Assembly (NCBI GenBank): GCA_958009085.1 | Contig: OY253681.1 | Span: 868,001 to 932,000 of the forward strand | Reading direction: 5' to 3' | Origin: Protoeuglena noctilucae | Lineage: Eukaryota | DNA length: 64,000 bases | Part shown: positions 112 through 64,000 of the stretch, piece after piece | Position numbering within the stretch: the first letter of the stretch is position 1 | Layout: every line of letters starts with the position of its first letter | Program-made: the position numbers and the translations under genes | The notes under the pieces: model-generated | Seen by the model: only the letters and a program-made list of their open reading frames with translations | What the model was told of the DNA's origin: nothing | The model's database searches: none

Positions 112-3100
112 CGAAGCCAAAGAGCGTCTGTTGAGAGACGTTCTGGCAGAGGATTCTGGCATAGTGATTACTACCTACGAGCACGTGAAGCTGTTCGCGG
201 ACGTGCTGCTCCCCGTCAGCTGGGGCTACGTGGTGTTGGACGAGGGTCACAAGATTCGAAACCCCGACGCGGACGTCACCGTGGTGTGCAAGCAGATGCG
301 CACGGTGCACAGGTGAGGGCGGAGATGAGAGGGGGCGACACCAGTCAAGTGCACACAGAGATGCTCTTTCACTCACCCTCAACCCCAACCACCCACCCTT
401 CACCCCCAGGCTCCTCCTCTCCGGCTCCCCCATTCAAAATTCCCTGGTGGAGCTCTGGTCTCTGTTTGACTTCGTCTTCCCCGGCCGGCTGGGCACCCTA
501 CCCGTGTTCACGCAGCAGTTCGTGGACGCCATACAGGCGAGGAGTGATTAGTTACTAAATAGTGACTATTATCGTTTATATTTACTACTGATTTGCGGGA
601 TGAGATGGTAACGCTTGCACTCCTCACCACCTTAACCACCCCATCTCCCACCACCCCATCCCTCACCCCCCACCCCTACACACAGAGCGGCGGCTACGTC
701 AATGCCTCCAAGCTGCAAGTGGCCACCGCCTATCGGTGCGCTGTGGTGCTGCGCGACCTCATCGCCCCCTACCTCTTACGGCGGCTCAAATCGGACGTGT
801 CGCTGCAGCTGCCCGACAAGACGGAGCACGTGCTCTTCTGCCAGCTCACGCCGGAGCAGAGGGCGCAGTACCTGGGTGAGTTGGATAGCAGCGCTAGTAA
901 TGGCGATGGCAGTGCTTGGGTGAGTTGAATAGCAGTGATGGCAATACATGGGTGAGACAGTAGCTACATCAACGGTGGCATTTACCACAGCCATCACCGT
1001 CACGCATGCATGTTCCATTATCTTCCCACCCCCCCCCCCCCCCCCCCCCCCAAGCGTACCTGGGCACCTCCGAGGTGGCCCGCATCGTGAGCGGGGAGCT
1101 GCACGCGCTGGCGGGCATCGGGGTGTTGCGCAAGATATGCAACCACCCCGACTTGCTGAGCCGGGTGTCGATGGCGGGGGAGGCTGCGTATGGGGACCCG
1201 GAGAGGTCGGGGAAGCTGAGGGTCACGGCGAGGGTGCTGCAGATGTGGGCGGAGCAGGGGCACAGGTGAGGGGTATGGGTGGGGGTTGGTGCGGTTGGGG
1301 TTGTGACATGAGGGGTGGGGGTGAGATGAGGGGTGTTGTAGATGTGAGCAGAACCTCAATGCATGCACTTACCAGGAAGTGCAAAATGCACAGACCCCAC
1401 CTCTCACTCCCCCTCTCCCCCCCCACCCACGCAGAGCTCTGGTCTTCACGCAGACGCAGCAGATGCTCGACATCTTGGAGAAGGCCACGCAGTCGCTGGG
1501 GCTGCGGTACATGCGCATGGACGGCAACACGGCGGTGCGCGTGCGGGCGAGGATGGTCGACGTGTTTAACAGCGATGAGAGCATGGCGGTGTTCCTGCTC
1601 ACCACGCGCGTGGGGGGGCTGGGGGTCAATCTCACAGGTGAGGGATGGAGAGATGCGGAGATTGTGTATGTATTACTATTGTTATGATTGATATGTTTGA
1701 TACTCGTTGCTGCGGATGGCATCAGATTGGCGGTACAGATTGACACAGCCGCACGAGTCAAGCGCACATTCGCTCTTTTTGCACATGGGACGACTCAAAT
1801 TCCACAACACCATTGTACTTTACGTGTCAGTACACTCTACATGATATGCTATTGTGATATCCCATATCTATCGCAGGTGCCGACCGTGTCCTGCTCTACG
1901 ACCCCGACTGGAACCCCATGACGGACGTGCAGGCGCGGGAGAGGGCGTGGCGCGTGGGGCAGAGGCGGCAGGTCACCATCTACCGACTCATCACGAGCGG
2001 GACCATCGAGGAGAAGATTTACCACAGGTGGGGATGCATGTGTGTGTGTGTGTGTGTGTGTGAGATGACGCGACTCGCAACGCACATTGCGTGCGGTGGA
2101 GTTGCGCTACAGGACGCGTGCTATTGCTCTCGTAATCAACAGTGGCCTGCGCTGAAGCCATCTGCGATACCATTACTACTACCACCACCACTCCTCCCCA
2201 CCCCTTCCACCCACCCCTGCATCCCTCGCTGTCGCAGGCAGGTGTACAAGCAATACACACATAAACAATCATATGCTTCCCCCCCCCCATTGCTGTCGCA
2301 GGCAGGTGTACAAGCAGTACCTGACCAGCCGCGTCCTCAAGGACCCCCGGCAGCGTCGATTCTTCCAGTCACGAGATTTGAAGGATCTCTTCACATTGGG
2401 GGACACGCGGGGGGGCGGGGAGACCCACAGGGTGCTAAAAGGGGTGCAGGGGAGGATCGAAGCCCCGACCGGTGACGGCGGGGGTGACGATGGGGGTGAC
2501 GGTGGGGGCGAGGGTGGGAGGGGTGGCTCTGTGCCGCAGAGCGAGCGGGAGCGTGAGGGTGGGGCTGGGGAGGGGCAAGCTGGGCCGTCCATGGGGGTGG
2601 CAATGGGGCAAGGGGCGGTGGGTGGAGACGAGGAATTGGATCCACAAGCGCTGGCGGAGGTGGGGGGCACGCTGGAACAGCATGCGGTGCGGGGAACGGG
2701 CGACGGTGCGGGTGCGGGTGCGGGTGCAGGTAATACCGAGGGTGGCGCGGATGCGGGTGTGGGCCCGTCGTCTGTCTCTCGTTCTCAAAAAGACGACGCG
2801 AGGGTGCTGCGTGAGTTGTTCGAGGGGCGCGGGATAGGGGGCGCGTTGGATCACAACGCAGTCGAGGCGGGGGCGGTGGATGGCGGGGGTGCGAGGGTGG
2901 TGGAGGCCGAAGCAGCGAGGGCGGCGAGAGCGGCGGCACAGGCGCTGAGAGAGTCGAGGCGCGCGTGTGGATCGGCGCCTGTGAGCACGCCCACGTGGAC
3001 GGGGCGGACGGGGGCGGCGGGGAGGTTCGGGGCACGGAGGAGGTGAGGGGTCGGGGTGGTGGGGTGGGTGAGGGCGGTGCAAGAGATGGGTGTGGGGGAG

Positions 3101-3594
3101 GTGTGGGGGAGGTGCGGGGGGTGGGTAGATGGTCGTGTGAGGCGCACATATCTACTCAAGTGCCCATGAATGCTGATTAACTGCCCCCGCCATCTCTTGC
3201 CCCTCCTTTGCACCCCATGCGCTTGCGGCACCCATCCCACCCTACTCACCCACCTGCACCTTCCCCAACCCCCCGCAGAGCCGGCACTAATGCCAGTGCG
3301 TCCGGCAGCTCCCTGCTGCAGCAGATGCGGGAGCGGCGGGCGCGGGACACGCTGCAATCGGAGTTGGGGCCCGCGGGGCTGCGGACGGCGGCGGCAGAGC
3401 TCGCGGGGCAGCTGGCGAGGTTTCTGGCGGAGAGGGGCGGGCGGGCATCGTCGGCAGAGGTGGCGGAGGCCTTTCAGGGAAGAGTGGGGGCCGACCACGC
3501 GAATGTGCTTCGGGAGTGTCTCAGGCAGGTGGCCGAGCTGAGGCGCAGCGAGGGCGGGGGGAAGGCGTGGGTGCTGCGGGACGAGTTCACTTGA
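112..3594 (+). CDS. ERCC6: SNF2-family helicase CSB/ERCC6/RAD26 (plant CHR8-like), 5' partial, 8 exons in window
   Basis: Spliced exons give [129 protein letters not shown] and a C-terminal winged-helix-like end WVLRDEFT*. Stop TGA 3592-3594. Confidence 0.95.
1029..1051 (+). repeat. poly-C tract (23 nt) directly upstream of an AAG acceptor
   Basis: Homopolymer seen directly. A similar 19-C tract at 11874-11892 precedes a DRP3 acceptor. Confidence 0.9.
2039..2062 (+). repeat. (TG)12 microsatellite in ERCC6 intron
   Basis: Seen directly. Confidence 0.9.
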
Positions 3595-3756
3595 CGGATG
3601 CGGAGCGACGCTTTGCTTGGTCTCTGCCAGCATCGCATGCTTACGAGTACGCATATGTCTACGCTTTCATCCTTTCCAGTCCCGACACACCGGCAGTCGC
3701 ACTCCACACAGCCTGCTTGAAACATGGAGTCCATTCAAGCACACAGCAGCGCCCCC

Positions 3757-4632
3757 TCAGTCGCCCAGTGCCAGCCCCTCGCGTGCCACAATGCTCCCTG
3801 TGCGTTGGGTGGGCGAAGGAGACCGCCTGCGCTTGCCCCCCGCCTGCTTCGCCACCCCGTTCGCGGCCCCGCTGTCCGACAGCACTCCCTTGCAGTTCCC
3901 ACCGATGGTAGCGGCGTCCTTGGACGACGTTTGCCGAGCCTGGGTTTGACCCTCGGCCGATGCAGGGTGGTTGCGGCTGCGTGCGACGGATGCACGGCCG
4001 ACGCTCGCATCACGTTCACCACTCCCACGACCTCTCCCATGGCCATCTTATCCGCGATATGCGATCATCACGGCATCGATCCTCACCCGAAGGCGGCGCG
4101 GGCGAGCTGGGCGGCGTATCCTTCCAGTGTTTCCATCGTCTGATCCCAGGACCCCGCCTGGCCCTGAGTCAGGGCCGAGAGGCGCGCGGAGGCGCGGGGG
4201 GGCTCCCGCGTCGCGATCGGCACGGGCGGGCCCGGATCCGGGCGCGAGCGGTGGACGACTTCCCTCGCACGGCGCGCGAAGTCCGCCACGATGAAGCGGA
4301 CCCTCGCTTGATGCTCCTGGTACTCGCGGTCCAGCGAGCGTCCAAGGAGAAGGCTCATGCCCTCGATGTCCACCAGCGCGTCGTACTGGGCCACATCGGA
4401 CGCCGGGGGGCGATCCTCGGGCCGCTCCTGGGAACGCAGCTCAGGCCGTCGCTCGGGACCCGAGGCCTCCGCGGAGCTCGCGCCGCGGCCTGCGGACGTC
4501 GCGAGGGAGACAAGGAGGTCGAAGAGATTTCATCGAGATGCCGCGGGAATACCGTCGGATGCGCAGAAGAAGGATGGGGGACTCAGCGTGCACGGCGCCT
4601 TCTGCGCGTCCCTGCAGCTCGCCTGGATCCAT
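3757..4632 (-). CDS. hypothetical protein (~210 aa), 3 exons
   Basis: ATG 4632. A 10-nt first exon (MDP-G) is followed by a GC-AG intron 4490-4622. Exon 2 reads ...DVAQYDALVDIEGMSLLLGRSLDREYQEHQARVRFIVADFARR... with a GTGAG donor at 4086. The last exon contains KRRRSPSP and ends at TGA 3757-3759. Phases are compatible; no recognised family. Confidence 0.5.
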
Positions 4633-4948
4633 GGCGCCGTGGGATGATTATTTGAGCTTTCCAGAACTAGTAGAGATCCTAGTCGTCCTGCCAAGCGGAC
4701 CAAGGAAGTGCACACAAAGCGTAGACTTCAAAAGCCTGAACGCGGCGGCGAAGCGTCGAAAACGCCGATCGTCTCACTCTGCACACTCTCCGAGCTTCAC
4801 ACAAGCGATGGGAATGCACAGCAAGCCGTATCTCGCGGTTCCCGCCGCGACCCGATCGGTGTAAGCCCTGCGCCAGAGAGGGACGCCGGCGCCCCTCGCC
4901 GGCCAAGGCTCCCGAGGCGCGATGCACCTCGCGCATACCTCAGCAGCC

Positions 4949-9589: not shown

Positions 9590-12500
9590 ATGGCGCACGG
9601 CGAGGCGGGCGAGGCCAGCGTGGGGCTTGGCGAGCTCCTCATCCCCGCCATCAACCGCCTCCAGGATGTGTTCAGCCAGGTGCGCCGGAGGTCGTTGTTG
9701 ATCGAGAGGCCCTTTCCGCGCTCGCGACACGATGGCCGGGGAGCGCAAGCATGTCGATTGGTTCGCACATGTCGTCGCGCAGGAGTGCGCCAGACGAACC
9801 TGGCGTGGCCCCGGCCGCGCGCGGCGCGCAATGCATGGCCCCCGTCCCCGGGGCAGCCCCGCGCGGGCCGCGCCGCCGCTCCGGCGACCCCGCCCGGCTC
9901 CCCCGCGTCCTTATTTTCCAGTTGATCATCTCTTATATCCCAAACGCCCCCTCCGCAGGCCCAGCTCGACTTCACGCTCGACCTGCCCCAGGTCGCGGTG
10001 GTGGGATCGCAGTCCGCGGGGAAGTCGTCGGTCCTGGAGGCTCTGGTTGGTAGGGACTTTCTCCCACGCGGTCCCGACATCTGCACGCGCCGGCCGCTCG
10101 TCCTGCAGCTGGTCAAGCACCGGCCGCGGTGAGTCGCGGGCCTTGGTGTGGCGCCGCACTGCTTGGGCCAGGGTTCGCCAGCCCACAACCGCTGATACGT
10201 TCAGTCGCCATGTCTCTTGCTAAAACCACCTCCACTGCCCCGACCGCTACCCTGCTACTACCACCCATGCTCACCCCATCGTCACCCTACCGCTTACCCC
10301 ACACCCACCACCCCACCCCCCAGCTCCGGCCAGCCCGAGGAGTACGGCGAGTTCCTGCACATCCCCGGCCAGCGCTTCACGGATTTCTCCGCGATCTGGG
10401 CGGAGATCGAAGCGGAGACGCAGCGAGTGACCGGGTCCAACCGCGGTGTCTCGGACCGCCCCATTCGCCTGCGTGTCTTCTCCCCACACGTCCTCACCAT
10501 GACCCTCGTGGACCTCCCCGGCGTCACTCGCGTCCCCGTGGGCGACCAGCCGAGCGACATCGAGGAGCGATTGCGGGAGATGATCATGAACTTCATACGC
10601 CACCCCTCCTGCCTCATTCTTGCGGTGTCTCAGGCCAACGTGGACCTGGCCAACTCCGACGCGCTGCAGATGGCCAGGGCCGTCGACCCGGACGGCCAGC
10701 GCACGATCGGGGTGCTCACCAAACTCGACCTGATGGACCGGGGGACGGACGCGGTGGCGGCGCTGGCCAACCGCGTCGTGCCGCTGCGGCTGGGGTACGT
10801 GGGGGTCGTCAACCGGTCCCAGGCGAGAGAGCGCGGGGGGTGATGAGGGGGGTGTATGTGTAAACAGTTTTGGTTGGTCGGTGGGTAGGCGACGGATGAG
10901 CTGCGCGTGGTTGCTGCCGTGCTAGCTTTCTGTTAGCACCCTGTTAGCATCTGCGCTGTCACAAGCACCGGTCATGCACACAAGTCACTCTGCAGGCGAT
11001 GTCCACTCCCGCAATGCTTTCCGAGTAAAACCTCGCTCTTCATCCCCACCCACCCCCCGCAGCACGACATCCAGTCCGGCAAGTCCATGCCCCAGGCGCT
11101 GGCGGACGCGGACGCCTGGTTCGCCTCGCGCCCCGAGTACCGGGAGGTGGGGGACCGGTGCGGGGTGCGCGCCCTGAGCCGCACCATCAGCCACATCCTG
11201 GTGCAGCACATCCACTCGGTGCTGCCACAGCTCAAGCGGCACGTCGAGGGGACGCTCGCGCGGTGAGATTCGGAGCATGACGCAGTGTCACGCTGGCTTG
11301 GTCGGGGGTGGGGCGGGGTGATTGAGGTATGTACACACGAATGATGCACTCTGTGGTGCATAAAGTCATGTGCCATCTCTTGCAAAGCATCTCTGCATCT
11401 CCTCTTAGCATTCACATCGAACGACAGTGGATCGACAATGCCACCCCATGTCTCTCTTGCAGCAAGTCCAAGGAGCTGCTGGGGTATGGGGAGCCCGCGG
11501 GTGCCACGGCCGCGTCCCGTGGCGGCCTGCTGTTGAAGACGATTAGCGAATACGACGGGAGGTTCAAGGCGATGCTGGACGGTCGCAGTGAGGACCTGCC
11601 CGTGTCGGAGCTGGCGGGAGGGGCGCGCATCCGGCACATCTTCCAGGTGATGTGTGATGCGTGGATGAGTGGGGAAGTGGAATGGGTGGAATGGGTGTGT
11701 TCATCGGATGCGATTGGGTGGGGTGTCTGGAGAGGGGTGTATGCATCGGCACATCCTATGCCAACGCCTCTCCTCACACCCAACCCCATCACCCCCCATC
11801 CCATGCCACCCCATCCCCACCCACCCCATCGCCTCCCACCCCATCACCTCTCCTCCCATCCCATGTCACTCATCCCCCCCCCCCCCCCCCCCAGGACATC
11901 TTCAACGGTGCCTTGGATGAGTACGACCCCTCGAGGGACCTCACCGACGCGGAGATCCGCACGGCCATCAAGAACTCGGGGGGGATCAAGGGGTCTCTTA
12001 TGATACCCGAGGTGAGGTTGAGGATAAGGAGTTGTCGATAAAGCATTGGGTTTCTAGTGACAGCATCAAGGGGTCCCTCATCATACCCGAGGTGAGGGGT
12101 AGCATTGGTATGAAGTTATGGAATGGGCATCAAGGGGTCTCTCATGATAGGCTGGGGAGGGCTAGGCAGGAGTAGGGTAGTGCTAACAAGGGGTTTATTA
12201 GAAAACACGGACACACGAGGTGAGGCGGTGGGCGAGCGTGACTGGCAGTGGATGCTGATGCATGAGAGGCCCGCGAGCGACTGTCGCTACACCTGACCAC
12301 TGAGCTTAGACCGAGCGATACGGGGGAGTGGGTGAGGAGCGGGGTTGGCGTGGGGTGGGTTTTGGCAGTGGTGGGGACAGCGTTGCTGCGGTGCTTGCGA
12401 TGCGGCAGATGCCGACGTCGCCGGCAGGTGCCATCGCGCAAGCACGGGAGCAATGCTGTCCCCACCACCGCCACCCTGGAAGCCACCCCGCTCCTCACCT

Positions 12501-14578: not shown

Positions 14579-16965
14579 TCATGGCGCCTCCAGCCCCGGC
14601 ACGATCCCCCTTGCCACCCCATAGGTGCGGTCCACCACCTCCCTCCCCCGCATGCTGAGGCGAGCGGAGAGGACCCGGTTGCCGGCCCTGGCGAAGAACA
14701 CACGGCCGCCCTGGCCACGGTGGGAAGGGAGGTTGGGGTCCGCCACGCGGGGAGCGGCGCCTGGGAGGGGCGATGAGGGAAGGGGACGGGTGAGGAGGGT
14801 GTGGGGATGTGAATGATTGTGATGGGTAGCAGGCGTGGGGGGTTTGAACGGAGGCGAACGAAGGTGACAGGTGCGCAAGGCATTGGAATGAAAACAGCGA
14901 TGGATGCGACCACCCAAACCACCCCCCACCCAAACCACCCCTCACCATCCATGCAGCATGTCCGCTCGGCATCCACCCTTTCCCACATGCACCCACCCCT
15001 CACCATCCATGCAGCACGGGCGCTCCGCATCCGCCATGCCCCACGCGTCGTCCCGCACCGCCCGCACCGCCGCCTCCTCGCCCCGCACCTCCTCCTCCCT
15101 CCACTCCCGGTACTTCAAATACACCTGCTCCGGGCTCATCGTTCCCTTCCGCAGCAGCCGCCGCGCCCGCACCAGCGCCGCGTTCGTCACCCACCGCTCC
15201 TCCGCGCCACGCGAGGGGCGGATGCCGCGAGAGTAGAAGCGGCAGTCGGCGCGGTGGAGCTCCCAGTCCAGCTGCGGGGGTGGGAAGGTGAGAGAAAGTT
15301 AAGGTGAGGTGAGGGGGTCAAGGTGAAGGTGAGAGGGGGTCAAAGGGAGAGGGGCCAGCAAGGTGACCCTTCCGTGCCCACTGCCAAAGTGCCACACCGC
15401 CCCATGCAGTCCCTGCACCTCTCTGACTCACCAGCGAACACGCCTCCGAGCAGTAAAAGGTCCGGTGGCACTTGTCGCAGGGCCGCAGCCGCGCCCCGTC
15501 CCCCCGCCAGAAACTTCGGCGGCCGCACCCCGCACACTGCGCCACCGCCATGCACCGAGGCACCCCGTTGGCCGGGGGCGCCGCCGCCCGCGCCGCGCGA
15601 CGGTCCGCTGGCTCCGGAGACGACATTAGCAGCAAATCGGACGCCGCGCTCGTCTCCAGCGCCGCCTCCCTCACGCCCTCGTGTGGGCCGCACTCTTCAG
15701 GTTCAGGGTTCGATCCCCGGCACTCCCCCTTTTCCCCACAGCCCCCCTGCTTCCCGCACCCGCACCCCTGTCCCCCCCGCTTCCCTCCTCCCCCGTACAG
15801 CTGCACCCTCCTGCCCCACACACCCGCAGTGTCGAGTGCCGCCCCACCCACGCGCTCGGCGAACCCCACATGACCGCAGCGGCCCGAGTAAGGCCGCAGG
15901 ATCTTGTCCCGCATGCGCTGGTTCTGCGTTGGCAGTAACTGCATTTGTTTAGATATGTACATGGGTACATGGCGTGGCAGTGTAGCGTGAGTGCGGTCAG
16001 GATGCAGATCGGCAGTCGGTGCCACGACGACTCGCAGGTGACAGCGGCCATAAGTCATGGGCCATGCCGTGACATGGAACGTCACCTCAGGTGCGCGCAT
16101 CCGCTCCTCCCTCCTCCGCTGCTCCGCCACGCGATGCCGTGCCGACTCAGGTCGCGCCTTGGCTGGCACGGGCGGCCAGTCCGGGTCGCGCAAGACCTTG
16201 AGTTCGCCCATGCGCCGCGCACCCGCGCCCTCGGGCTTGCCCTCGCGGAGGCTGCGGTGGCCCCCTGCGCGGGGAAGCGAGGCTTGTGCGGCCATGTCGC
16301 GATGTCGCATTTGGGAGCGCAGCCAGCGGCGGAGCGCGGGGCAGATCCTCACGCGGCGCGTGGAAGGTCGCAGGAGGCTCCTTGGCGATCGAAGCGAGCC
16401 GCTCGGCGATGCGGCGGTTGTCGCGGTTGACGTCGGCAGCAAAGCGCCGCTGGTTGATGGAGTTCGTCGAGCGGAACCAGGTGGGGGCGCTTCTGGGCCT
16501 CTCTGCAGGTGCCAGAGTTAGCGTTTTATAACTCGCGGGAGCTGGCATAGGACAAGGCGGGGATCGCTGGCCGGCAGCGGCGCGGCAAGGGCGCAGTGTC
16601 GCCTAGCTGTGCCTCGACAGCGCCGCGCAGGGTCACGGTGGGGCCGCAGTGATCAAGCGAGTAACGAATTGAGGTTTAGAACATGTCAGCGACGTCATTG
16701 CCGCAGGAATCCGAGGCTTGCCTGGCCTGGCTTTGGCGTTCGGGGCCGAGCCTGAAGTGGACGCGACCGCGGGGTACTGGACCTCCTCAAAGTAACGGCC
16801 CAGACCATCAGGCAGTTTGACGGACCTTCGAGGAGTTTCGGCAGGCCTTGGCCTCTCCTCGGGCGGCAGCACGGGCACGGCTGCATCCGGTGCAAGCGGG
16901 GCTGCCCGAGGGGGCGAGCCCGGCCCCTTCGCGGGCTTGGAAACCTTCCCCCGCACTACCTCCAT
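14579..16965 (-). CDS. MYND zinc-finger protein with an N-terminal CFAP97/KIAA1430-like helix
   Basis: MYND: CAGC...CDKC..FYCSEACSL|LDWELHRADC across an intron. N-terminal part contains NSINQRRFAADVNRDNRRIAERLASIAKEP. Stop TGA 14579-14581. Start uncertain (in-frame ATGs at 16965, 17106, 17136). Confidence 0.7.
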
Positions 16966-20927: not shown

Positions 20928-21011
20928 TGAGTTCAGACTTCGGACAGACAGCATACGGACCTGCGTTGTATGGGCTGAGGTGGTAGCGTGCAGTTACGGT
21001 GATTTTGGTAG

Positions 21012-43300: not shown

Positions 43301-46300
43301 TCGCAAATGTACTGCAGGAGTGACCACCGCACGTTGGTGACCCTGCGACTCCATGGCTCCCCGCAGATGTACGGCAAGTTTTTGGAGGACCTGCAGGACA
43401 ACACGGGCCTGGCGATGCAGTACTTCCAGGAGGCGGAGCGGCTGGAGGACGCGGCTGCGGCGCGGAATGAGGCGGCGCAGGCCGAGGAGACGGCGGGGGA
43501 GGTGACGATGAAGGACCGCCCGTCCCTGACCAACATCGACGAGGCGCGGGATAGCGTGGTGGTGATCGACCCCGAGGGGGTGATTAACTTCACCAACGGC
43601 AATATGACCAAGCTGTTCGGCTACAAGCGCGGGGAGCTCGTGGGCCGCAACGTGTCCACGCTCATGCCCCAGCCCTTCAGCCAGCAGCACGACCGGTTCG
43701 TCAAGAACTACACCCTGACCGGGCAGCCCCGCATCCTCAACCGCGTCATGCCCTTCGTGGCGCTGCACCAGACCGGCATACTCTTCCCCATCACCGCATG
43801 CATCACCAAGATCTCCCAGGTGCGAGGGCGGTGTCGCATAGCATGCATCAGCTGCGAGAGGGGTGAAGCACAGCATTCATAGCCAAGATTCACCATGTGC
43901 AGTGCATAGCTCGGTGACCGGCCGGGCTTCAACCCTCCACGCATCTCCCCAGCACCGCTGCACTTACCTCAACCATGTGCCCATGCGTAACCCCACGAAC
44001 CCCCCTGACACCCCACCAACCCTTCTCCGCCCCCTTGAATGCAGAACGGCCGTGATGGTTTTATGGGCGTCATCCGCGCGCGCGAGACGGACGACTCCGA
44101 GGCGGTGCTGTACCTGTCCGCGTCGTGCCAAGTGGTGTCGGTGACCAAGCCCTTCGTGTCGCTGTGCGGGTGGAACCTGCAGCAGCTGCAGGCGCAGGAG
44201 ATCAACGTGCTCTTCCCGGACGAGGCCGGGCTGCGGGCCACGATGGGCGCCGCCACGCAGGAGTGCGGGGACGAGGCGCCCCCGTCCTTCAAGACCCACG
44301 TGCAGTCGCGGTTCGGCGAGCGCTTCGACGCGCGCGTGCTCGTCACCTGGGTGGGGAGCAACGAGACGCGACTGTTCATCCTGCGCGTGGCGCGAACGAG
44401 CGAGGAGCCGCCCCTGGTGGTGCTGGGCCCCCACAGCGAGATCCTGAGCCACAACACGGCCTTCAAGCGCCTGTGCGGGCAGAACGAGAAGACCCTGCTC
44501 GGCGCGGGCATCGCCAAGGTCCTCGCCTACCCGTGCGCGGCCATTTTCGGCAGCCGGCTCGACAAGCTGGGCGACGACGCGCAGGCACGCGCGGCGGCCA
44601 TCGACCAGAAGATCGTCCGCATTCCCTGGAAGAACGCCCAGGGGTTCGTCTACTCGCAAATCACGCTGCTCAGCAAGGGCGAGGGCGAGGACGGGGAGCC
44701 GCAGTTCACCTTCCGGTTCCAGTACCTGGAGCGAGGTGAGGGGTGGTGGGTGGGGTGGCGTGGGTGGCTGGGCGCTGTCGATGGCATGAACCAAGGGCCT
44801 TTTGTCATGACAGGGGCCTGTCGCTGGCACAGGCCATGACCTTGTCTCTGACACCGGGCTTGTCCATGGCTTCCCCCGTAGAGCTCGCATTGATGATGCA
44901 CTTTAGCCTTTGGCATATCCCGCGCGCTCGTCCCGTCTTCCTGCAGGCGCCGAGGACCACGCGGCCGTGACACTGTCGGTGGACGGGCAGGGCGTGGTGA
45001 CGGACGCCACGCAGCACTGCCAGTGCACGACGCCCGCGTTCGGCTTCACGTCCGAGGGCCTCACGGGGCAGCCGCTGAACAAGGTCATCCTCATGCGCGG
45101 GCCCATGGAGCCCTTCATGAGCGCCTGGGTCGAGGCCACGCGCGCCCCGCCCTTCCAGTCCGAGTCGCAGCTCGTGTCGGTCCGCCACGCCAACGGGTCC
45201 ATGCGCTTCGGCATCGCCTACTTCAACGCCGACTACGAGCTCGTCGGGCAGGGCCGCGACGCCAAGCCCGTCGGCGAGCCCTCCCTCTCCATCACCCTCT
45301 ACTGCCTCGACTTCCTGCCGGTCGTGCTCGACATGCACGACGACACCTCCATCCGCCACGTCTATGGCTCCATCCGCCTGCTCTCCGGGCAGTCCGGGGA
45401 GGAGCTGACGACCCGCCCGGGCGCCTCGGTGCTCCCGCAGCTCTTCCGCCAGGCCGGGAGGTCGGCGGACGCCCTCCTGCTGCTCCCTGGCCAGCGCCGC
45501 GCCGCCAGCAACAAGCACAAGCACGTCGTGGGCAGCGAGCAGTACTCGGAGGGCATGTCGGGGCCCCTGGGCGTCAAGGTCACGTGCCAGGCGGCCCGCA
45601 TCCAGGGGACCAAGGACACGGTCATGATGCTGCTGGAGCCCACGGGGCCGTCCCCCGGCCCGGTCAAGGCGCCCGTCGCGCGGGCGTTCGTCCCGGGCCT
45701 CGACGACGTGCACGTGCAGCGCGCAGGGCGCAAAGGCAAGGAGGGGGCGGCCGCGGAGGGCGGCGAGGCGGAGGGGGCGGCTGCGGAGGGTGCGGCTGGC
45801 CAGGATGCTAAGCAGGACGGGGCAGCGGAGCAGGGCGAGGACGGGGCCGGGCAGGTCGCTGCGGCGGCGGTGGAGTCGGGCCACGACGCTGCGGGGGCGG
45901 AGGGTGCTACGGCGGGTGCGGCTGGCGCCGAGGGCGGTGCGGATGAGAAGGGCAAGGACAACGGCCTGATGCGCGGGGCTGCGGAGGGGCGGGAGGGCGA
46001 GGGCAGCCAGGAGGGCAAGGCGCCTGCGGGGGAGGCGGGGACGGAGCCCCCCCGGGTGTCCCGCTACACGGCGGGCGGTCGGCTGAGCGGCTCGTCTCAC
46101 GGGGACAGCGACGAGGAGGGCGGGGGCGGCGAGCGGCAGGGCTTCGCGTACCAACGGATGAAGGACTGGGTGGACCACGACGGGTCGACGCACAAGCAGA
46201 GCATGGGGCCGGCGGAGCTCTTCACGGAGCCGGCGTCGCTGACGGGCGCCGCCATCTCGCGGCTGCAGGAGTCGCTGCTCCAGGCGGGGAGGGCCGACAG

Positions 46301-49300
46301 CGCAGGCGAGAGTTGCACGCAGGCCGGGATTGCACAATGGGGGGCTTTACCCCTCGTTTGGGCACTGTCGTGGCCGCCTTGCCTCCCTGCACGCGCTCCG
46401 CTCGCTTGCGCTGCCCACAACCTCGTGCCTGGTTGCTCACGCATCCCTGTCCTTCTCCCTTCCCCCAGGCGTCGCCAGCCCCGCCGTCCTCGACAGCGGC
46501 CGGCAGACGGTCCAGGCTGCCCACGCCTCCGCCCATGGTGCTGCCCATGCCTCTGCCCACGCCTCTGCTCACGCGGCCGCCCCCACGCGCCAGGTGTCGG
46601 GTGCTCTGAGCGGCGAGGAGGAGCCCGCCGCGGAGCAGCCGGGCAAGCTGGGCAGGGCCGACAGCATATGCGCGCGGCACAAGCCGACTCGCATGGCGTC
46701 CGGCACCCGCCTGGTTGCAAAGCGCGACCACGAGGACGAAGACGATGATGTGGATGACGGTGCGGTGGTGGCCACTGCGGCCCCTGCCCCCGGGAAGCTG
46801 GGGAGCTCTGAGGAGAAGACCAAGTCGGACGACGGCGGAGAGGACCTGGTGGATAGCCAGTCGCAGGGAGACGACGAGGAGGGCCGCGAGGATGCGGTGG
46901 GCGGTGGCGACAGCGACAAGGACGCTCATGGTGGGGAGGACGGGATGTTCGTGGAAGGTGCCAAGAAGGGCCTGCCGACGACGGAGGCCTCTAAGCGGGA
47001 GTCCGGGGAGTCTTCCCGCAAGAGCAGCGCCAGCGCGATGAGCGAGGGCGTGGGGGAGGGTCCGCGCATGGTGGTGGAGGGGGAGGAAGACATGGGGGGA
47101 TTGGAGCTGCTGGAACACGAGACGGCGCAGGTGAGGGACTAGGGACTGAGCAACTGTTATGGTGTTGCAATGGGTAGCACATGTCACATGAGACGGCGCA
47201 GGTGACCTGAGCGAATGCGGGCCTGGCGAGTGGCACGACGCGGCACCCGTCGTCTGTGCTATCGTCACTCGATGGCACCCATCTTTACGGTCAGGTCACT
47301 ACTCTCTGCTCGTCTTCACTCTTCTCCCCCGCCCCTCTCCCGCAGGCCCGCAGCCGCAAGTTCAAGCGCGTCTACGGCATGCTGTCGTCTCAAGTGATGA
47401 TGCGCCCCGTGACCATCGCCCGGCTGACCATGCTGGTCGTCTCCATGGTCATCATCGTCGTCCAGTGCATCGGGTTCAGCCAGATCCTCCTCCGCGTCCT
47501 TGAGCACAACAAGCTCAGCGCCTACGTGCAGAAGGCCGGGGCGGCACTCAAGGCGAGTTCCAACATGCGTGGGTGCCACCACTGCTCGATGATCGCTTAC
47601 CACGCCACACCGTGCACCTCTTATGTCACAGGTTCCCTTTGATAGTTACATAGACCATCTCATTGTCAACAAAGTCAACAAAGTTACCAGCGTCATGATT
47701 AAACTCTCCGCAGGACATCGTGGACATGAATGCACATTATTGATTTCGATAGATCTCGAATGACATTAACAATTCAATAGACGTCAACAATCTCAACCGC
47801 CATCTCCCTGCAGGACATCGTGGACATGAATGCACATTATTGATTTCGATAGATCTCGAATGACATTAACAATTCAATAGACGTCAACAATCTCAACCGC
47901 CATCTCCCTGCAGGACATCGTGGACATGAAGCGGTACGCCCGCCTGCTCCAGGGCCTGTCCGTGGGCACGCCCATCCCCGACTCGTCCCTGGAGCGCAAC
48001 CAGCAGCTCTTCCTCTCCTCCACCAACAACTTCCTCGATGCCCACAACGCCTTGTACCACACCGCCACCATGTTCAAGGACAAGAAGTGTCAGCCGCAGT
48101 TCAAGGCGAGATGACAAGCGGGGGGCGGCATGCCATTGCGCATGCTGTAACGAGGCGCTTTCCAATGCCATCCGCTGCCCTCAACTCCTAATCTGTTCGA
48201 CAAGCTAGTTCAGCAAGCTCGTCTGGCTGCGGCCGTCTGGTCACTACCCCTGGCATGGTCGCCGAACCCCCTCCCTCACCCCCCTGTGTGGCGCAGGACA
48301 TCTGGCTGACGATGAACCTGGGCGTGACAGACCTCACCACGTCCAGCTTCACCCTGGGCGGCGCCACGAAGGCCGTCACGACCAACCTGTGGGAGGCCGG
48401 CAACACGTACGCCAGCTACGGGCTGGAGCTGGCCAAGATGGGCCAGGCGGACATCAGCCAGGGGGACATCGCCCCGCTGGCGTCCTTCCAGTACCTCAAG
48501 GACAACGGGCTCGTCATCATCGCCGGGCGGTGAGGGGCGCGAGGGGCGGTGACTGTTAACTGCATGGAGATGCAGGGGTGGGTGGCAGGAGCTGTGACTG
48601 TTAATTGCGTGGGAATGCAGGGGCGGGTGGCAGGCACACAAGGAGCCCATCACAGCGCCACCGTAACTGCTGCATCCACCACCTCGCCTCACCTCCCACC
48701 CCTGTCACCACGCCATCTCACCTCCCACCTCCCATACCCTCCTCCCCAGCTACGAGGAGCTCCTTGGCACGCTGGTGTCCGTGACCAAGGCCAACCTGCT
48801 GCAGATGGGCGTGGTGGCCATAGTGTTCCTGGCAGTCAACCTGGGCGTGGTGGTGCCCATCGGCCTGGTTCTCATCCACCGCGGCATCTCCGCGTCCCTC
48901 CGCGTGCGTGCCAGCATGATGTCCATCCTGGTGGCCGTGCCGCGCCGGCTGCTGCTGGAGATGTCGCGCCGCCCCATCAACCTGGAGATGCTGGACGAGC
49001 TAGCCGAGAGGGACGAGGAGGAGGACTCCGCGGAAAAGAACGCCATGGCCGTCACGCAGACCGCGGGGATCTCGTCCAAGGCCATGCGGGTGCTGCTGTC
49101 GCAGAGGGTCGACTACGAACGCGTCAAGGGTGAGAGGGGCGCTGATGCGAGTTGGAGTGATATTGGCTAGTCGAGTGCAGTTGTGGGTGCAGTACTAGTG
49201 GAGGCAGGCAGAAAGGCTCAGCGACGCTTCCATGCACGTGCGCATGGGCATTACCACCCTGGCCCGCCACGCACACGCACCTCACCACCACGCTCTCCTC

Positions 49301-51215: not shown

Positions 51216-51592
51216 CGGCGCAGGCGCCGATCGGTTTTTCTCCCCGCCGTCGTGCATGACTGAGTCATGAGTTGCGCGACTTGCCAGTTTTGCTCTTTGT
51301 CTAAGTCTTTTTAGACTCTATAACCCTATGGCCGTCCGTCGTGGTCCTTTCCTTTTGAAAACGTTCCGTGCCTGCAAGAAACGACCTTTCTTGCGCTTTT
51401 GAAGATGAGACCGGCTACCAGGAGACCGCGAGATTGTTTGTCGCGTGTCTCGGACGCGCTGGCGTATAAGAGGCACTTACTCAGAGTGTGTTCGCACGCG
51501 ACGCGAAAACACGAGACTTTGCCATGTCGCGACGATAGATTGCCAGGACCCTGGGGTCAATTACGCGTTTTCTACGCTACAGCAGTTTGGAC

Positions 51593-57361: not shown

Positions 57362-57505
57362 ATGGCAGACGTGGCATGGCATGGGGTGCATTCGCAGACG
57401 TGGCTGTGTGTTCAAACGCTCGACCCGTTCCATAGCACACAACGTGTGCCGCTAGTGTGTGAACACGTCACAGACACACCCCATGTAGAATGCTGCTAAC
57501 AGTGG

Positions 57506-58711
57506 TTATAACCACTCGTCTTCGTCTTTCCCGTGCCCCTCCGTAATGACCCGGCCTTCCAGTCTCGACTGGGGCAGCCACCGGTACGGCAGTGGCACTG
57601 TCACAAGGCCCACTCCCGGCACCTCCACTGCCGCCGCGTCCAGATTCCAAGACCACTGCCACGGCCGCCAGGACCAGGGACGGTACCAGTCCTCCCCCGG
57701 GCCCAGCCTGCAGGTGTAACGAGCGTGGCAGCCTTGAGGCTTGACGGTGGTAGCATGGTGGGTGCTGGGCAAGCGTGGGTGCAGTGCAGTCGCTCGACAC
57801 CTCGCACTGCCCGGTCTCTCACCTGATGAGACGCCACACCAATGCCAATGCTCACCTGATGAGAGGCCACACCACGGCCAGGGCTCTCCCCTCCACCAGG
57901 GACCCCGGGATGGCACCGTACGAAGACCGGGAGTCCAGAGAGTGACCCGCGTTGTCGCCCTCCACCCACACCTGCCCCGCGCCCACGTGAGCCGGCATCA
58001 GCCTCCCCGGCACGCCCAGCACGTCCCCGTCCAGACCCACCACGCGCTTCACCACGTTCTCGCCCACGCGCCGCGGGGAGCGCATCACCACCACGTCTCC
58101 CCTGCGCGAGGAGGGACAAATTTGATCCAGAACGACAGAGCGGGGATAGATGCACCGGAAGCTGGCGATGGCGGAGCCCAGCGGACGCGCCGTGCGCGAC
58201 TCGCCTCTGCCAAACACGGTCACGGCCCGTCAAGGCCCTCCAGAGGGGCGCGGTGAGGAGACTCACGCCGACCCTCTCCACGACGATGATCTCGCGGTCA
58301 TGAAGTGTCGGAAGCATCGACGAGCCCTGCACATGGCTGAGCTGCGGGGCCAGGGAATGCACGGAAAGGCTGTGTGGGGCAGCCAGGGGCAGCCGGCCGC
58401 GATGCTCGCGCCGGAAGGACTGCAGACGAATGACTTACAGTGTACGTTACATGCTCGTCTCGTCGCTTTGCTCCCTTAGCCACGCAAGCCGGCGAAAAGT
58501 GGCTGGCCTGGGCACGCACCTGCGCAGTGTGGCTGAGAATGAAGGACGCGATGGCGAAAGAGCTCAGGACATCGAGGAGAGTCGAACCTGTGCGCTTCCT
58601 GGATTGGTTCCCCTCATCCAAGGGTCGCGGCGAGGCAAATCCGCGGGCTGCGTCCGGTCGCGTCTCCCAAACTTGCACGCGCCACGCAGCGCGCCACGCC
58701 CCGCGGGCCAT
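57506..58711 (-). CDS. mitochondrial inner membrane protease subunit (IMP1/IMP2, peptidase S26), 4 exons
   Basis: QGSSMLPTL (catalytic Ser), QR|GDVVVMRSP, VVKRV (catalytic Lys), VWVEGDN..SLDSR.SYGAIP..LVEGR..VVWP. Confidence 0.92.
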
Positions 58712-59176
58712 TGGCCTCTCAGGTCGTCATATCCGACAGACGGCGCCCTGCGGCTTAGGCAGGGGCGCTGGTGACGCTCTGCGAGCTCGAAGCGCCCTTC
58801 AAGGCTTCAGCGAAGCGCAGCTGGCACATCGCTCGCTGGCACGTCGGCCCGCTTGCGAAACACAGGCGCTCGATCGCTGGCGGCACACCCCGTGTTCGTT
58901 GAGACCCAGGCGGGACGCCGCGCGGCCCCGTCTTTTCCGAGCGTGGGCTGCACTTGGCGTTGCGCGCCGTGTGCCTCCTCCCATGGACCTCCGCCGCGCT
59001 CCGGTCTGTCGCGAGCTAGCTATCCCGATTTAGTCTCGGTCTCGAGCAGAGCGCCTGTCTAATCCTCGCGGCGTTGCTGCCCGCGCCAGGGCCGCAGCGT
59101 CCGGCGCATTGGCATTGCTCCTGGCGCGGCTCATGGACCCTTCCACGCAACGGGGGGCTAGATAGCGGCGGTTGCG

Positions 59177-62100
59177 ATGCAGGGCAACGGGAAGTCGACC
59201 TGGGCTTCGACGGACGGGCGCGGGGGCGCGGGGCCACGAAGCGGGGCCGGGGGCAGGGCCGGGACCGATCGGAGCGCCTCCGATGCCCTGGAAGCATACC
59301 TGCAGAACTTCGATGCCAAGCCCGCGGACCGAGCGCCGGCGATGCCCGCCCCGGCGCGGCCCGCGGCCCGGCCCCAGCCCCCGTCCCGTGCCGCGCCCGC
59401 CCCGTCAGCCACCGCGCCGCCTGCGCCGCCCGACGAGCCGCCCGAGGCGGCCGAACCGCGACCGAGCGGTCCTCTGCGCTTCCGCTCCGCCGCGCAGGAG
59501 CCCCCCGCGCCGCAGCGCGCGTCCCGCGGCCCGGCCAAGTGAGCGCAGCACTCGCCCCGCACGCTGTGGCTGCCCTGCCCCTGTCCCCGCCCTCCTGCGC
59601 CGCGCCGCGTATGTGCGAGTCCCTGAATCGTGCTTCCGCGCCACCCTTGCCCCACCTCTCCTCTTCCCAGGCCCTCGGGCGGCTTCAACTGGGCAGAGGT
59701 GGACCGTCAGCTGACGTTGGTCCCTGAGGTGTACCGTCGCCCCGACTTCGACGGCCTGCGTCAGCTGGTGACGGTGTTAACTGCGTTCGACACCGACAAG
59801 GCCCTCTCCCAGATCCAGGACCACCGCCGCCGCGTGGAGTCGCTGTTGGACGGCATTGTGCGGTCGCACCACGGGGGGTTCAGCCGGGCCATCCACAACT
59901 ACTCGGAGATCCTCAGGTGGGGGGTATGTGGAGAGAATATGTTGTGATGGTATAGATGTCTCCACCGGGGCCTTGTGTTAACTGCATGCAGCCCACTCTG
60001 CCGCACTTGTGTCCCCGCACCGTCATGCCAAGCCTCTCATTAAGTTCTTCACTCTCCCTGTCTCTACCCCCCAGGCTCTTCTCCGAGGCCCAGTCCCGCG
60101 TCAACGCCCTGAAGCGCGACCTGAGGGAGGGCCGGGCGCGCGTGGGCACCCACTCCTCGTCCCTGCAGCACCACTGGAGGGAGGCGGAGATGCTGAGGGA
60201 TGCTCTGAAGGAGCTGGGGGACATCGAGACGCACGCGGCGGCGCCGGCCAAGCTCACCGAAATGCTCAGGTGAGGATGTAGGTGGGAGTGGGGGGGTGGC
60301 TACGGAGTGGCGGAGGTAAGAGTTGGCTCCGTGGGAGTAGAAGAGGCTGCGAGGCATGCGTTCCTCGACCACCCACTGTATTACTCTCAACCATAGACAC
60401 CATGCAGCCACATCCACCCCTGTGCATGCCATGCACCTGTGTCACAGGCCCTCACGCACCTCGCACTCCACACCCCCCGCACCCTCCCAGGTCGGGCCAG
60501 GTCCTCCCCTGCATCGACCAGCTGGTCCGCACCTCCGCGTTCCTGGCACGGGACGAGATCCAGCGCATCCCCGCGCTGCTGGGGTTGCGGCACGAGATGG
60601 CAGCCATCAAAGCCAGGGTGGACGCCCAGTTACGCGCCGCGGTCAGGTGAGAGCTGCACTGTGGTTTGGAGCCAGGGTGGCTGTTGTTGTTACTCGTTGT
60701 TGGTCTTAATTTGACGACGTAAGAAAGCGCGTGTGTGAGGGTTCGGTATGGCCCACCCCTCGCTACCATCACCATCCACAACACCCCCCTTTCCTCCCCA
60801 TCCACTTACTCCCCCTCCCCCACACCTCCCCCATCGCAGCGACTGGCTGAGTTGGCCCGGCGTGGGCCCCCGCGGCCTCGTGGGCCGCACCCCCAGCACC
60901 CTCTCCCCCTCTCGCGTGGCCATGGCAGCCATGTACGACTCCGACGACGACGATCCCAACGCAGACGACTCTGGGCAAGACGACGAGGTCATGTCACCCG
61001 GGAAGGGAGTCACGAGAGGGGCGGACGGGGAGGGGGGGACGGGGGCGGGTGGGATAGGGCCGCCGCCGCTGAAGGGTCTGGTGGCGGGGGTGGGGCGGAC
61101 GGGGCCCCTGCGGCGGCTACTGCGGTGGGTGGAGGAGGATTTCGAGAGCGTGCTGGAGAGGGCGCTGGGGAGCGCGCTGGCGGACGTGGGGCCGGCGGGG
61201 GGGTGGGGCGGGGAGGGAGGGGGGTACGTGGCGGCGGGGCTGTCGGCAGCAGCGGTGGCGGCAGTGCAGAGATTTCTCCCCGAAGCACTAGCTGTGGCGG
61301 GGGAGGTGGCGCGGTGAGTGGTGGTGGTTGGGGGAGGTGGGGTGCGCTGTAGGGGGAGAGGTGAGGGGTGAGGGGTGAGGTATGGGAGTGGGGTAGCCAC
61401 TCGCTTCTCGCACCCACCCGCTCTCTTGCAACACGCTGGCCTGCCATTCCATTTAACAGCTACCCTTCTCTACCCCACACCCTCACCCCACAACTCATCC
61501 CACGTTCTCTCTCCCCATCCCATCCCCCCAGCCGTGTGGTGCGACTGATGACCGAGGTGGCCACGGCGGGCGCCCAGGTGCAGCCCAGCCGCGCCGTGAT
61601 GGCATTGGGGGACCGAGTGGTGGCAGACGACTCTCCCCAGTTAGGGCCGGGGGGTGCCACGTCCCCAGTGAGACCCGAGGAGGCAGTAGCAGAAATGCTC
61701 AAGGCATGGTCGGCGGTGCAAGCGGTGGTGGCGGAGGTGCTGGGGACGCTGATGGCGCCTGCGGACGCGGAGGCGAGGGCGGGGGCGGAGGGCGGCGGCG
61801 GGGGCGGGGCAAGGGCAGCGGGCGTGGGAGCGGGGGCGGGGGCGGGGGCAGGCAAGGCGGCGGGGGCGGCGTGGCGGCCGGGCGCCCGCGCGCGTCGCGC
61901 TTTCTCGATCGGAGTGGGCGCGGTCGCTGCGGAGAACGGCGCTGACGAGGAGGAGGGCGAGGGCCCTGCCTCGCGTGGTGGCCCCCCCTCGGCGCACCTG
62001 GTGTCGATGCTCTGCGCCAAGTTCCCCGCTCTGGAGGCCGACCGGGGGCCGGGGCTGCTACCCGCCATGTACCTGTGAGTCGACACGTGCTTGTGCGCTC

Positions 62101-64000
62101 TGCTTGTCACTTCATGTACCTGTGAGTCGACATCTGCTTGTCTCTTGTGTACCTGAGTCGCACTGCTGGTTGCCCCATGTACCTGTGGGTGTACGTGCCA
62201 TGTACTACACGGTTGTCAACAGCAACCTCCGACATCCCGTCATCATCTCCCACTCCTCCCTCCCCCTCCCTTCGCCCCCAGCCCCTCCCTCCAATTCCTC
62301 GACTCCCACTGGGACGTCGTGCGCCAGGCCGCCAAGCAGCTGAGCGTCCCCCTCGGCCCCACCAACGCAGCGGGGGAGCTCACCTTCTTCCCAGGCGTCC
62401 CCGTCTCCACCCTCCAGGCGTTTTTGTCAGCAGCCTCCCAGCAGGCGTTCCTGCCCTGGGCAGACGCCCACGTCCGCGCCCTCGTGGCCGCCGCCACCGA
62501 CCCACGCGGCAGCCTCCCCGCCAGGTTCACTGGTGTTATCCGGGACACCACTGTGATGGGAGCAGCGGCCGCCATTGCCGGCCGCCCCGCTCCAGCCGTC
62601 GCCCCCCGCCCCTCCCTCGGCCCCAACCCCGCGCCGTCTGTGGGCGCCCCGTCGGTGTCGAATGTCGACTCGCTTTCGCGACTCGCCCCGCCGGGCGCCG
62701 CCGGGCCCAGGCGCGGGGCGGGGTCGGCGTCGGCGTTAGAGGCCGCGGCGTGGGCAGCGCGGTCGGTCGAGGCGTGGGTGGCGGGGGTGCCGGACCAGCG
62801 CGACGCGCTGACAGCCGTGCTCAAGACGGCCGCGGGGCAGGTGGCGGCGGCGGCGCGGCAGGCGGCGGCGGCGCTGTCCGGGGGCACGCGTGCGGCGCGG
62901 CTGGCCGAGGAGCTGTCCGTGCACCTGGCTGCCGAGGAGGCGTCGCGGGTGGGAGGGTCCGAGTCGCACGCGGCGTCGTGCGCGGTGGCGGAGGCGGTGG
63001 TGGGGGGCGCGCCCGTGGGGCCGTCGGACGTGCAGGCGACGCCGCAGGGAGTGGTGGCGGTGGCGGCGCTGGGGGCAGCGGCGGAGGAGCTGAGCGGGAC
63101 GCTGGGCGCCGTGGGGTCGGTGTCGTTCATGGCCGCCGCCGTGCAGGCGCTGGGGCTGGGGGACCTGCTGCAAGGGGCGTGGCAGCCGCTGAGCGTGAGC
63201 CCGGAGAAGGGGCTGGTGCGCGTGGGGGCGGGGGTGCCGGGGATGGCCGAGGCGCTGAGGCCCGCGGCGGGTGAGGGAACGAGGATCGCTGATATGAGAG
63301 AGATTGGATATGGCGAGGGCTGGGGTTTGATGTAGATGGGGCGTGTCACTGGTGCATTGTGGGCGGACGGGATTGTTCACCCAGCATGGCACGAGCTCGC
63401 CAGTGCTTTGGCCGTGTGACCATTGACATGTAATGCCCTCCCCGCAGAGTCCCTCCGTCAGCTGGCCACGTCGCTGTTCCGCACCGCGCGCCTGGAGATG
63501 GCCTGCCGCACCGCGCTGCACCTGGAGCCCTGCGTGACCAAGCCCCATGGGGCAGCGCCCCTGGCCCCCGCGGTGGATGAGTCGGTGCTGAGGCTGCTGG
63601 CGTTTGCGGGGGCGGTGGCGTCTGGCATGAACGCGCTGCCGGCCATACGCGAGGGCGTGGCGCCGCAGGTGATGGGCCTGGTGGGGCCCGTCGCGGCCCA
63701 TGCGGTGGCGCACGGGGTGGCGCGGGCGCCGGAGGTCACGCCCGGGGGGGTGCAGCGGCTGCTGTGGAGCCTGGGGGCGCTGTCAAGGGCGCTGGAGGAG
63801 ATGCCGAGGTGGAAGGTGAGGGAGGTGGGAGAGATGAGATGAGTGAGAGATGAGAGATGCCGAGGTGGAAGGTGAGGGAGTGCGAGATGAGAGATGAGAA
63901 GAGATGCTTTGGTGGAAGGTGAGAGGGGCTTGAGAGTAGAAGAGATGAGAGGAGATGCCAGAGTGGAAGGCCGCACATTCCATAACACCACCAGCCCTCC
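59177..64000 (+). CDS. SEC8: exocyst subunit SEC8/EXOC4, 3' partial (last exon in window ends at 63815)
   Basis: FDGLRQLVTVLT..VESLLDGIVRSHHGGFSRAIHNYSEILR|LFSEAQSRVNALKRDLREGRARVG..LQHHW matches the plant Sec8 N-terminal domain. The C-terminal region is divergent. Confidence 0.88.

Follow-up and report, generated by a model that had tools for sequence, protein, structure and literature searches.

Minisatellites whose first unit lies across an exon-intron boundary are known from several human genes, including intervening sequence (IVS) 7 of F7, in which a unit of 37 base pairs (bp) occurs 5-9 times, the interferon-inducible gene 6-16, and IVS13 of CBS (Borensztajn et al. 2006, PMC1557585), and further human cases are described for LMNB2 (100 bp) and PDGF (81 bp) (PMC1557585). 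In the parts of that report drawn on here, the upstream donor is the one mostly used in such arrays, and splicing of F7 employs no site other than the most upstream one (PMC1557585). Arrangements of this kind recur in a stretch of the genome of Protoeuglena noctilucae (NCBI GenBank assembly GCA_958009085.1, contig OY253681.1, positions 868,001 to 932,000 of the forward strand), in which introns carry direct copies of the segment that straddles their own donor or acceptor site. The whole stretch of 64,000 nucleotides (nt) that was analysed is referred to as the window, the copies are termed echoes, and each echo site is denoted by the window position of its splice junction on the forward-strand scale.

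The anatomy is already known from human genes, and the notable part is the density, as 11-12 of about 95 introns in the window are affected. Like the F7-type arrays, so far as the cited parts of PMC1557585 describe them, the direct repeats have a first (donor) or last (acceptor) unit that spans the boundary, which is the case at 11 sites and at 43817, and they present functional-looking pseudo-sites of which the outermost is used where tested; the units measure 37-100 bp in human and 33-100 nt here. The human arrays in the same parts of that source are single, polymorphic cases of 5-25 copies in a large genome, whereas 11-12 cases of 2-5 copies occur within 64 kb here, about half of them with unrelated spacers and two at acceptors. 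Intron birth by tandem duplication of an AGGT segment has also been described (Yenerall and Zhou 2012, PMC3443670), and shares with the present case that a second splice-site copy arises, that splicing removes the extra DNA, and that the coding sequence is unchanged. In that model, as outlined in the portion of the article considered here, the new intron lies between the original and the duplicated AGGT, whereas in the window a longer, pre-existing intron is extended. Besides tandem duplication as a source of introns, the same portion covers the direct repeats that arise from break repair (PMC3443670). The sites 2301, 26722, 47131 and 57855, at which two copies of a core flank a spacer, resemble the filler flanked by a direct repeat that such repair leaves, although the repeats here are 20-29 nt long against a few letters there, and no new intron is formed. 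A literature search gave no earlier description of a genome in which the pattern recurs this densely, which does not prove that none exists.

The window has a G+C content of ~66% and contains dense, intron-rich eukaryotic genes. An initial annotation of the same DNA had claimed that at least 11 introns in 7 genes, on both strands, contain direct copies of their junctions. The gene model used here, a self-trained coding hidden Markov model (HMM) with splice-site refinement, was built independently of that annotation, its junction positions agree with the annotated ones, and the copies are present at all 11 coordinates (Table 1). The model resolves 93 introns with a median length of about 190 nt and is exact at 9 of 12 introns for which RNA contigs give support, the 12 being those among the joints listed. 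Each echo intron holds 1-4 copies, and at 7 of the 11 sites at least three copies are present in total when the authentic one is included. Echo cores are 20-40 nt long, apart from one unit of 100 nt (121 nt perfect at 47710), with identities of 0.89-1.00 and spacings of 33-100 nt. The further claim that the copies decay with distance is borne out by the repeat families and the unit alignments, in which later copies are less similar to the authentic one.

The whole window was surveyed for local direct repeats at a spacing of 12-250 nt and with an ungapped score of at least 15, low-complexity units being removed. This census returned 22 arrays, whereas 20 block shuffles averaged 0.05 and a second set of 10 gave 0.3. 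Exactly half of these arrays, nine at donors and two at acceptors, coincide with the 11 sites already reported; four of the 22 are wholly coding, and the rest are non-coding. An own-intron versus other-intron control, in which each junction segment was also compared with eight other introns, reveals that the similarity is to the intron of the junction itself rather than to others. At a score of at least 12, 7 of 75 donor segments had a match in their own intron, against 0 in 600 comparisons with other introns (Fisher 1.6e-7); for acceptor segments the figures were 2 of 75 and 1 of 600 (Fisher 0.034). The donor sites 26722 and 63816 are absent from the set of 75 because their far ends are unresolved or lie outside the window. 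All-against-all blastn of the window introns yielded nothing beyond coordinate overlaps and short matches (17-20 nt) of poly-C or low complexity, in agreement with the earlier view that the units are unrelated between introns and form no transposon family. A transposon or introner origin of these introns was rejected on the same comparison, which found no family shared by many of them; introns without a common sequence family imply that no mobile element is involved.

Marine metatranscriptome runs contain RNA contigs with exons of the window, and DNA-like runs contain 99% of its sampled words. The comparison with read contigs (RNA from runs X1 and X4, DNA from run X5) covered 20 kb of the window. 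The X5 contigs, which constitute an independent short-read assembly, cover 45587-47382 and 50922-64000 with zero letter or indel differences and carry the arrays 47131, 57855, 62075 and 63816 unchanged; the identity over both stretches thus confirms these four arrays as DNA, although X5 may come from the same strain or sample as the assembly. This identity, and the graded divergence of the copies, which is unlike an artefact, make it extremely improbable that the echoes were created by assembly or polishing and are absent from the DNA of the organism, even though six sites lie outside the compared 20 kb and the 100-nt triple array at 47704-47930 is bridged by no X5 contig. Some X5 contigs are joined in an odd manner: two joints skip 402 and 1035 nt (47978-48381 and 61806-62842), and another steps back at 57171-57189, within a 12-nt C-rich intron repeat. 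These joints may represent haplotype variants or repeat-induced misjoins.

Direct junction support is available at 4 of the 11 sites, from RNA contigs at 47913 and 57855 and from the continuity of Pfam profiles across the exons at 12012 and 28839, and the other seven junctions are those of the gene model. The exon-proximal copy is used at all four. RNA contigs drop rare forms, and minor use of a decoy is invisible to them. The decoy splice sites that the echoes had been proposed to create are real, and their strength equals that of the authentic sites: the first decoy donor scores at least as high as the authentic donor at 876, 12012, 15003, 26722, 28839, 57855 and 63816. At 47131 the decoy scores below the authentic site, and at 62075 the echo repeats a weak authentic site that falls under the listing threshold. 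Use of the first decoy would lead to a frameshift or a stop at seven of the eight donor sites with a listed decoy; the exception is 57855, where the decoy scores above the authentic site and its use would add 33 in-frame letters. Tandem splice sites of the NAGNAG or GYNGYN type were considered and rejected, as the copies are 33-100 nt apart and an open in-frame insertion is found only at 57855. According to the unit alignments, GTGAG is kept in five of nine older copies and lost or weakened in the other four.

Two forms of echo are observed. Whole units are repeated in tandem at 63816, 28839, 62075, 876 and 15003, and in the 100-nt acceptor array at 47704. At 2301, 26722, 47131 and 57855, and in part at 12012, the repetition is limited to a core of 20-33 nt at the junction, on either side of a spacer. 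A search for the sources of the spacers elsewhere in the window gave only chance matches of 9-11 letters; some spacers include short G/T-rich or mononucleotide runs. Intron growth, which had been suggested as a consequence of the echoes, is directly visible in the sequence; the extra copies account for between about a fifth and over half of the host intron. Intron sliding, intron gain, recursive splicing and regulation through nonsense-mediated decay, which had been suggested as well, find no support within the reach of this analysis. The echo-bearing introns are 148-614 nt long and have their units of 33-100 nt at one end, the far splice site not being a copy. Intron gain by tandem duplication of exonic AGGT was rejected, because the intron length is not that of the duplicated unit and the far end holds no copy. 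Around donors, the array starts are continuous from about -29 to +38, with no fixed breakpoint, and one tandem reaches just 3 letters into the exon. A spread of this kind is what placement blind to the junction would be expected to give. The window contains 22 local direct arrays versus a single local inverted repeat, which does not lie at a junction, and snap-back or inverted templating was rejected on this ground. The inverted repeat, the only sizeable one (12363-12399/12437-12473, arms 37 nt, gap 37 nt), is situated within the echo-bearing dynamin intron.

Table 1. Junction-spanning direct repeats in the window. Positions are on the forward-strand scale; host genes are named from Pfam matches to single exons.
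Site	Feature and host gene	Positions	Strand	Authentic copy and junction	Further copies	Match	Intron and support
876	Donor echo, SNF2/ERCC6-like helicase gene	865..957	+	865-891, junction between 875 and 876	909-935, about 941-957	Spacing 44, 27 nt, identity 0.89 (census)	876-1054 predicted; Pfam SNF2-rel_dom on upstream exon
2301	Acceptor echo, SNF2/ERCC6-like gene	2228..2320	+	2292-2320, junction between 2301 and 2302	2228-2256 (intronic)	Spacing 64, 29 nt, identity 0.97	2028-2301 predicted; 35-nt spacer between copies AT-rich, unrelated, without source in the window
12012	Donor echo, dynamin-family GTPase gene	11985..12230	+	11985-12017, junction between 12011 and 12012	12065-12097, 12129-12161; fourth, broken copy with donor-like site at +208	91%, 76%	39-residue exon 11895-12011 matches Dynamin_M 153-190, neighbouring exons 94-151 and 191-285
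15003	Donor echo, gene of unknown family	14935..15044	-	14993-15044, intron end 15003	14935-14986	Period 58 nt; 85% over 52 nt; census core 40 nt, identity 0.90; Tandem Repeats Finder (TRF)	14761-15003, gene-model prediction only
26722	Donor echo, DEAD-box SPB4-like helicase gene	26601..26753	-	26714-26741	26664-26691; older copy about 26601-26640, GT turned GC	28/28 identical (first echo)	Far end unplaced in gene model; Pfam CTE_SPB4 on exon 26725-26877
28839	Donor echo, DEAD-box SPB4-like gene	28697..28868	-	First unit spans junction, intron end 28839	51-nt tandem array, at least 3 units	25/25 core common to units 1 and 2	Exon 28842-28988 matches DEAD 46-91, next exon DEAD 95-146
43817	Junction-spanning tandem missing from the initial annotation	43817..43880	+	Begins 3 exon letters ahead of donor 43820	Second copy, GT lost	32 nt x2, 78% alike (TRF and sequence)	43820-44044 predicted
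47131	Donor echo, large PAS-domain membrane-protein gene	47115..47205	+	47115-47134, junction between 47130 and 47131	47186-47205	Spacing 71, 20 nt, identity 0.95	47131-47345 predicted; X5 contig unchanged
47913	Acceptor echo, PAS-domain gene	47704..47930	+	47904-47930	47704-47730, 47804-47830	100-nt tandem unit; 121/121 identical	X1 and X4 RNA contigs join 47552 to 47914, last acceptor copy used
57855	Donor echo, S26 signal-peptidase gene (Pfam Peptidase_S26)	57818..57874	-	57851-57874, intron end 57855	57818-57841	33 nt away; 24 nt, identity 0.96	X1 and X4 RNA contigs splice 57708-57855, exon-proximal donor
62075	Donor echo, Sec8-like gene	62066..62220	+	From 62066, junction between 62074 and 62075	From about 62113, 62148, 62175, 62198; units shrink	Spacing 47, 29 nt, identity 0.93	62075-62281 predicted; X1 RNA contig piece begins 62282; X5 contig carries array unchanged
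63816	Donor echo, Sec8-like gene	63795..63970	+	From about 63798; first unit spans donor, between 63815 and 63816	From about 63854, 63901, 63952; tandem units about 47-56 nt	27/27 core	Donor from sequence reading and HMM coding end 63828; no downstream exon inside the window; X5 contig unchanged

The coding sequence of the window provides a view of the duplications that selection retains. Among the arrays with both copies fully coding, 10 of 11 have a period divisible by 3 (P 1.3e-4), which indicates that small duplications also arise in exons and that only those that keep the frame persist. In-frame coding tandems are located at 24015-24119 (period 30), 21666-21757 (54), 36243-36316 (57) and 45740-45790 (30). 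This frame filter, the use of the exon-proximal copy at the four sites tested and the lack of a fixed breakpoint support one of the two origins that had been put forward for the echoes, namely that the duplications now seen are those that survived selection.

We therefore favour, with a probability of roughly 0.6, the reading that the echoes stem from small local duplications of an ordinary kind, which selection and persistence have then sorted. Replication slippage, unequal exchange or break repair would produce direct, head-to-tail or nearly head-to-tail copies of 30-100 nt, and such duplications seem to hit genes throughout this GC-rich, intron-rich genome. Those in exons would survive only when in frame; those in introns would all survive and would decay quickly in repetitive, skewed sequence. 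A copy that spans a junction would survive because the spliceosome keeps the exon-proximal site, and the extra copy, including its exon letters, becomes intron. Junction copies would also stay recognisable for longer than intronic ones because the authentic exon half is constrained by the protein and is of high complexity. This reading would explain the echo-like appearance, the decay with distance, the spread of breakpoints and most of the counts, and the outcome would be longer introns with rows of intact, unused decoy splice sites. Internal gene duplications that take in exon-intron boundaries are the subject of Gao and Lynch (2009, PNAS), who reportedly noted that small tandem duplications within genes are common and that those at splice sites can be neutral or can alter the structure of the intron.

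The expected share of junction echoes was estimated from a null in which simulated tandem duplications of 20-100 nt were placed uniformly over 57-60 clean window introns, borders included. The simulation held exons and the splice consensus constant, let every other position accumulate substitutions and indels over a randomly drawn age, and ended with a run of the same detector. Over ten parameter sets, 28-39% of the detected arrays were junction echoes (donors 10-21%) and 17-20% were edge cases. The observed numbers at a score of at least 15 are 11 junction echoes and 6 independent internal arrays (13629, 19688, 26281, 46541, 48542 and 55682; 63890 belongs to the 63816 array and was left out). 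Several features of this comparison weigh against duplication and selection as the full account. Junction echoes are 1.5-2.5 times too many over the thresholds used (P 0.003-0.065); at a score of at least 15 they stand at 11/17 versus 0.28-0.39 expected (P 0.003-0.027), donor echoes reach 9/17 versus 0.10-0.21 expected (P 1e-5 to 0.003), and lowering the detector threshold adds no further junction echo. The ratio of run to period is at most 0.6 in five of the seven echoes with an identity of at least 0.95, versus 16-24% in the null (P 0.002-0.011), so that a clean tandem with uniform decay misfits 2301, 26722, 47131 and 57855. Donors outnumber acceptors by 9 to 2 (P 0.05), and exon letters without a splice site occur in 0 of 17, versus 17-20% expected (P 0.02-0.04). 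Duplication and selection alone leave the perfect cores beside unrelated spacers and the donor bias unexplained; the additional assumptions would be filler introduced at the event, fast slippage of spacers, and selection against duplicated acceptors with branch sites. The material is moreover a single 64-kb window, in which 4 of 11 sites give evidence of the copy used.

The size of the excess varies with the way in which internal arrays are counted. At a score of at least 13, internal arrays are added and the count becomes 11/20 (P 0.010-0.065). TRF, which applies no complexity filter, finds 13 arrays of period at least 20 in 75 introns, among which 8 are internal, most of these being C- or G-rich; the TRF-inclusive count of 9 echoes versus 8 internal arrays (9/17) gives a P of 0.12, and the excess fades. 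All of these tests are post hoc and concern a window flagged for the same pattern. Of the other proposed origin, a process that duplicates DNA preferentially at splice junctions, what stands is the excess over the uniform null, whereas the preference itself is not established, as it fades when the TRF arrays are included. A junction-targeted process is neither needed nor excluded, and the answer depends on the null. Overall, we read the window as ordinary duplication plus selection, with a donor-side bias that is possible but unproven; for the mutational mechanism, the neutrality of the copies and persistence as the cause of the residual donor excess, this is what we infer from the patterns described above.

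The rival that takes the excess at face value is a mutational hot spot, in which breaks or template switches just inside the 5' end of the intron would be repaired by copying the adjacent 20-35 nt together with the junction, often with filler. A possible cause would be the very G-rich first 30-40 intron letters on the coding strand, which would be prone to R-loops or secondary structure in transcription or replication. Echoes of junctions, and of donors above all, would on this view form at a higher rate than duplications elsewhere and constitute a main route of intron growth in the lineage. The shares of 11/17 for junctions and 9/17 for donors, the core-plus-spacer form of five of the seven high-identity echoes, and the predominance of donors over acceptors are the results that such a process would account for, but the shares are not robust to the alternative counts and come from post hoc tests. 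Several purely intronic arrays are also found at most 40 nt from the donor (48542, 41734, 55682, 18160 and 54400), a further point in favour of the hot spot. Against it, the breakpoints of the echoes are variable relative to the junction, and inverted copies, which snap-back repair would also yield, are lacking. At donors the GC skew rises sharply from +0.05 to +0.65, and ahead of acceptors it reaches -0.6. The suggestion that slippage or repair acts at G/C-skew boundaries is thus sound with respect to the sharp step at the junctions, but echo and non-echo introns are alike in skew, and the equally strong skew at acceptors is accompanied by only two acceptor echoes. G-quadruplex (G4) motifs show no clear association with echoes (2/7 vs 7/68). 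On balance, the hot spot appears fairly unlikely. Its broadest form, in which intron starts are a hot spot of templated duplication through transcription, splicing or G-richness, act as a main engine of intron growth and supply a genome-wide set of donors with identical decoys, we consider unlikely.

Retention for a selected function would place the emphasis on the decoys themselves: intronic donor copies would be kept for recruitment of the U1 small nuclear ribonucleoprotein (snRNP), as back-up sites, or for diversion into degraded, frame-shifted transcripts. The scores of the decoy donors, equal to or above those of the authentic sites, and the perfect cores at 26722, 28839 and 63816 are compatible with this, and the frameshift or stop predicted at seven of eight donor sites fits a scheme coupled to nonsense-mediated decay (NMD). 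The retention of GTGAG in only five of nine older copies gives, however, no sign of preservation. The units are unalike between genes, and the exon-derived letters, which form most of the core, are unnecessary for U1 binding. At the two sites testable by RNA contigs, which drop rare forms, only the authentic junction is seen, and the host genes have no common theme. No function of the copies emerges from these observations, and a selected function is quite improbable.

Under the favoured reading of local duplication with selection, the window captures intron growth in progress, with duplicates of the intron's own boundary in roughly one of every eight introns. The window offers many natural cases of two to four equally good sites in a row, at which, where tested, RNA contigs show only the outer site in use; the same situation has been studied gene by gene in human F7. 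A donor excess that holds genome-wide, if true, would suggest that mutation itself is linked to splice junctions, a type of process that has no established place so far. Without a true excess, the window would still show clearly that the duplications left to be seen are those that purifying selection has let through.

The echo in the dynamin-family gene contains an indication of age. A single synonymous Leu difference is present at 12012, where the exon has T and both intron copies share C, and the array therefore dates back far enough for the exon itself to have changed since. When the dynamin exon was used as a protein query, the search returned the window's own protein and relatives of at most 37% identity, and no close relative. 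A metagenome scan with the DEAD-box exon 27468-28220 gave 8 loci, all distant (30-61% identity) and from other organisms, which are unusable for intron comparison. The match of one DEAD-box exon to Pertussis_S2S3 was rejected as noise (E 0.0098, 16.3 bits versus a cut-off of 27). The HMM calls the plus strand at 56353-57348, yet the adjoining RNA-supported introns are on the minus strand (57708-57855 and 58102-58204); its strand call is unreliable in places because of the codon bias here. A run of 200 N at 36470-36669, either an assembly gap or a masked stretch, lies within a minus-strand gene.

Some intronic tandems consist of donor-like GTGAG units without exon letters (18160-18199, 15284-15343 and 26281-26323), and in two of them, 15284 and 26281, the GGTGAG is found on the other strand from that of the host gene. 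Introns of the window are G-rich over their first 30-40 nt and C-rich ahead of the acceptor, where pure C runs of 19-27 letters, such as 1025-1051 and 11874-11892, serve as the pyrimidine tract. The donor consensus is G/GTGAG or G/GCGAG, with the slash marking the junction. Among the joints listed, 4 of the 12 RNA-supported introns in the region 44736-58204 begin with GC (GCGAG) instead of GT. GC donors are also frequent in the gene model, and the share of GC-AG introns is unusually high compared with most eukaryotes.

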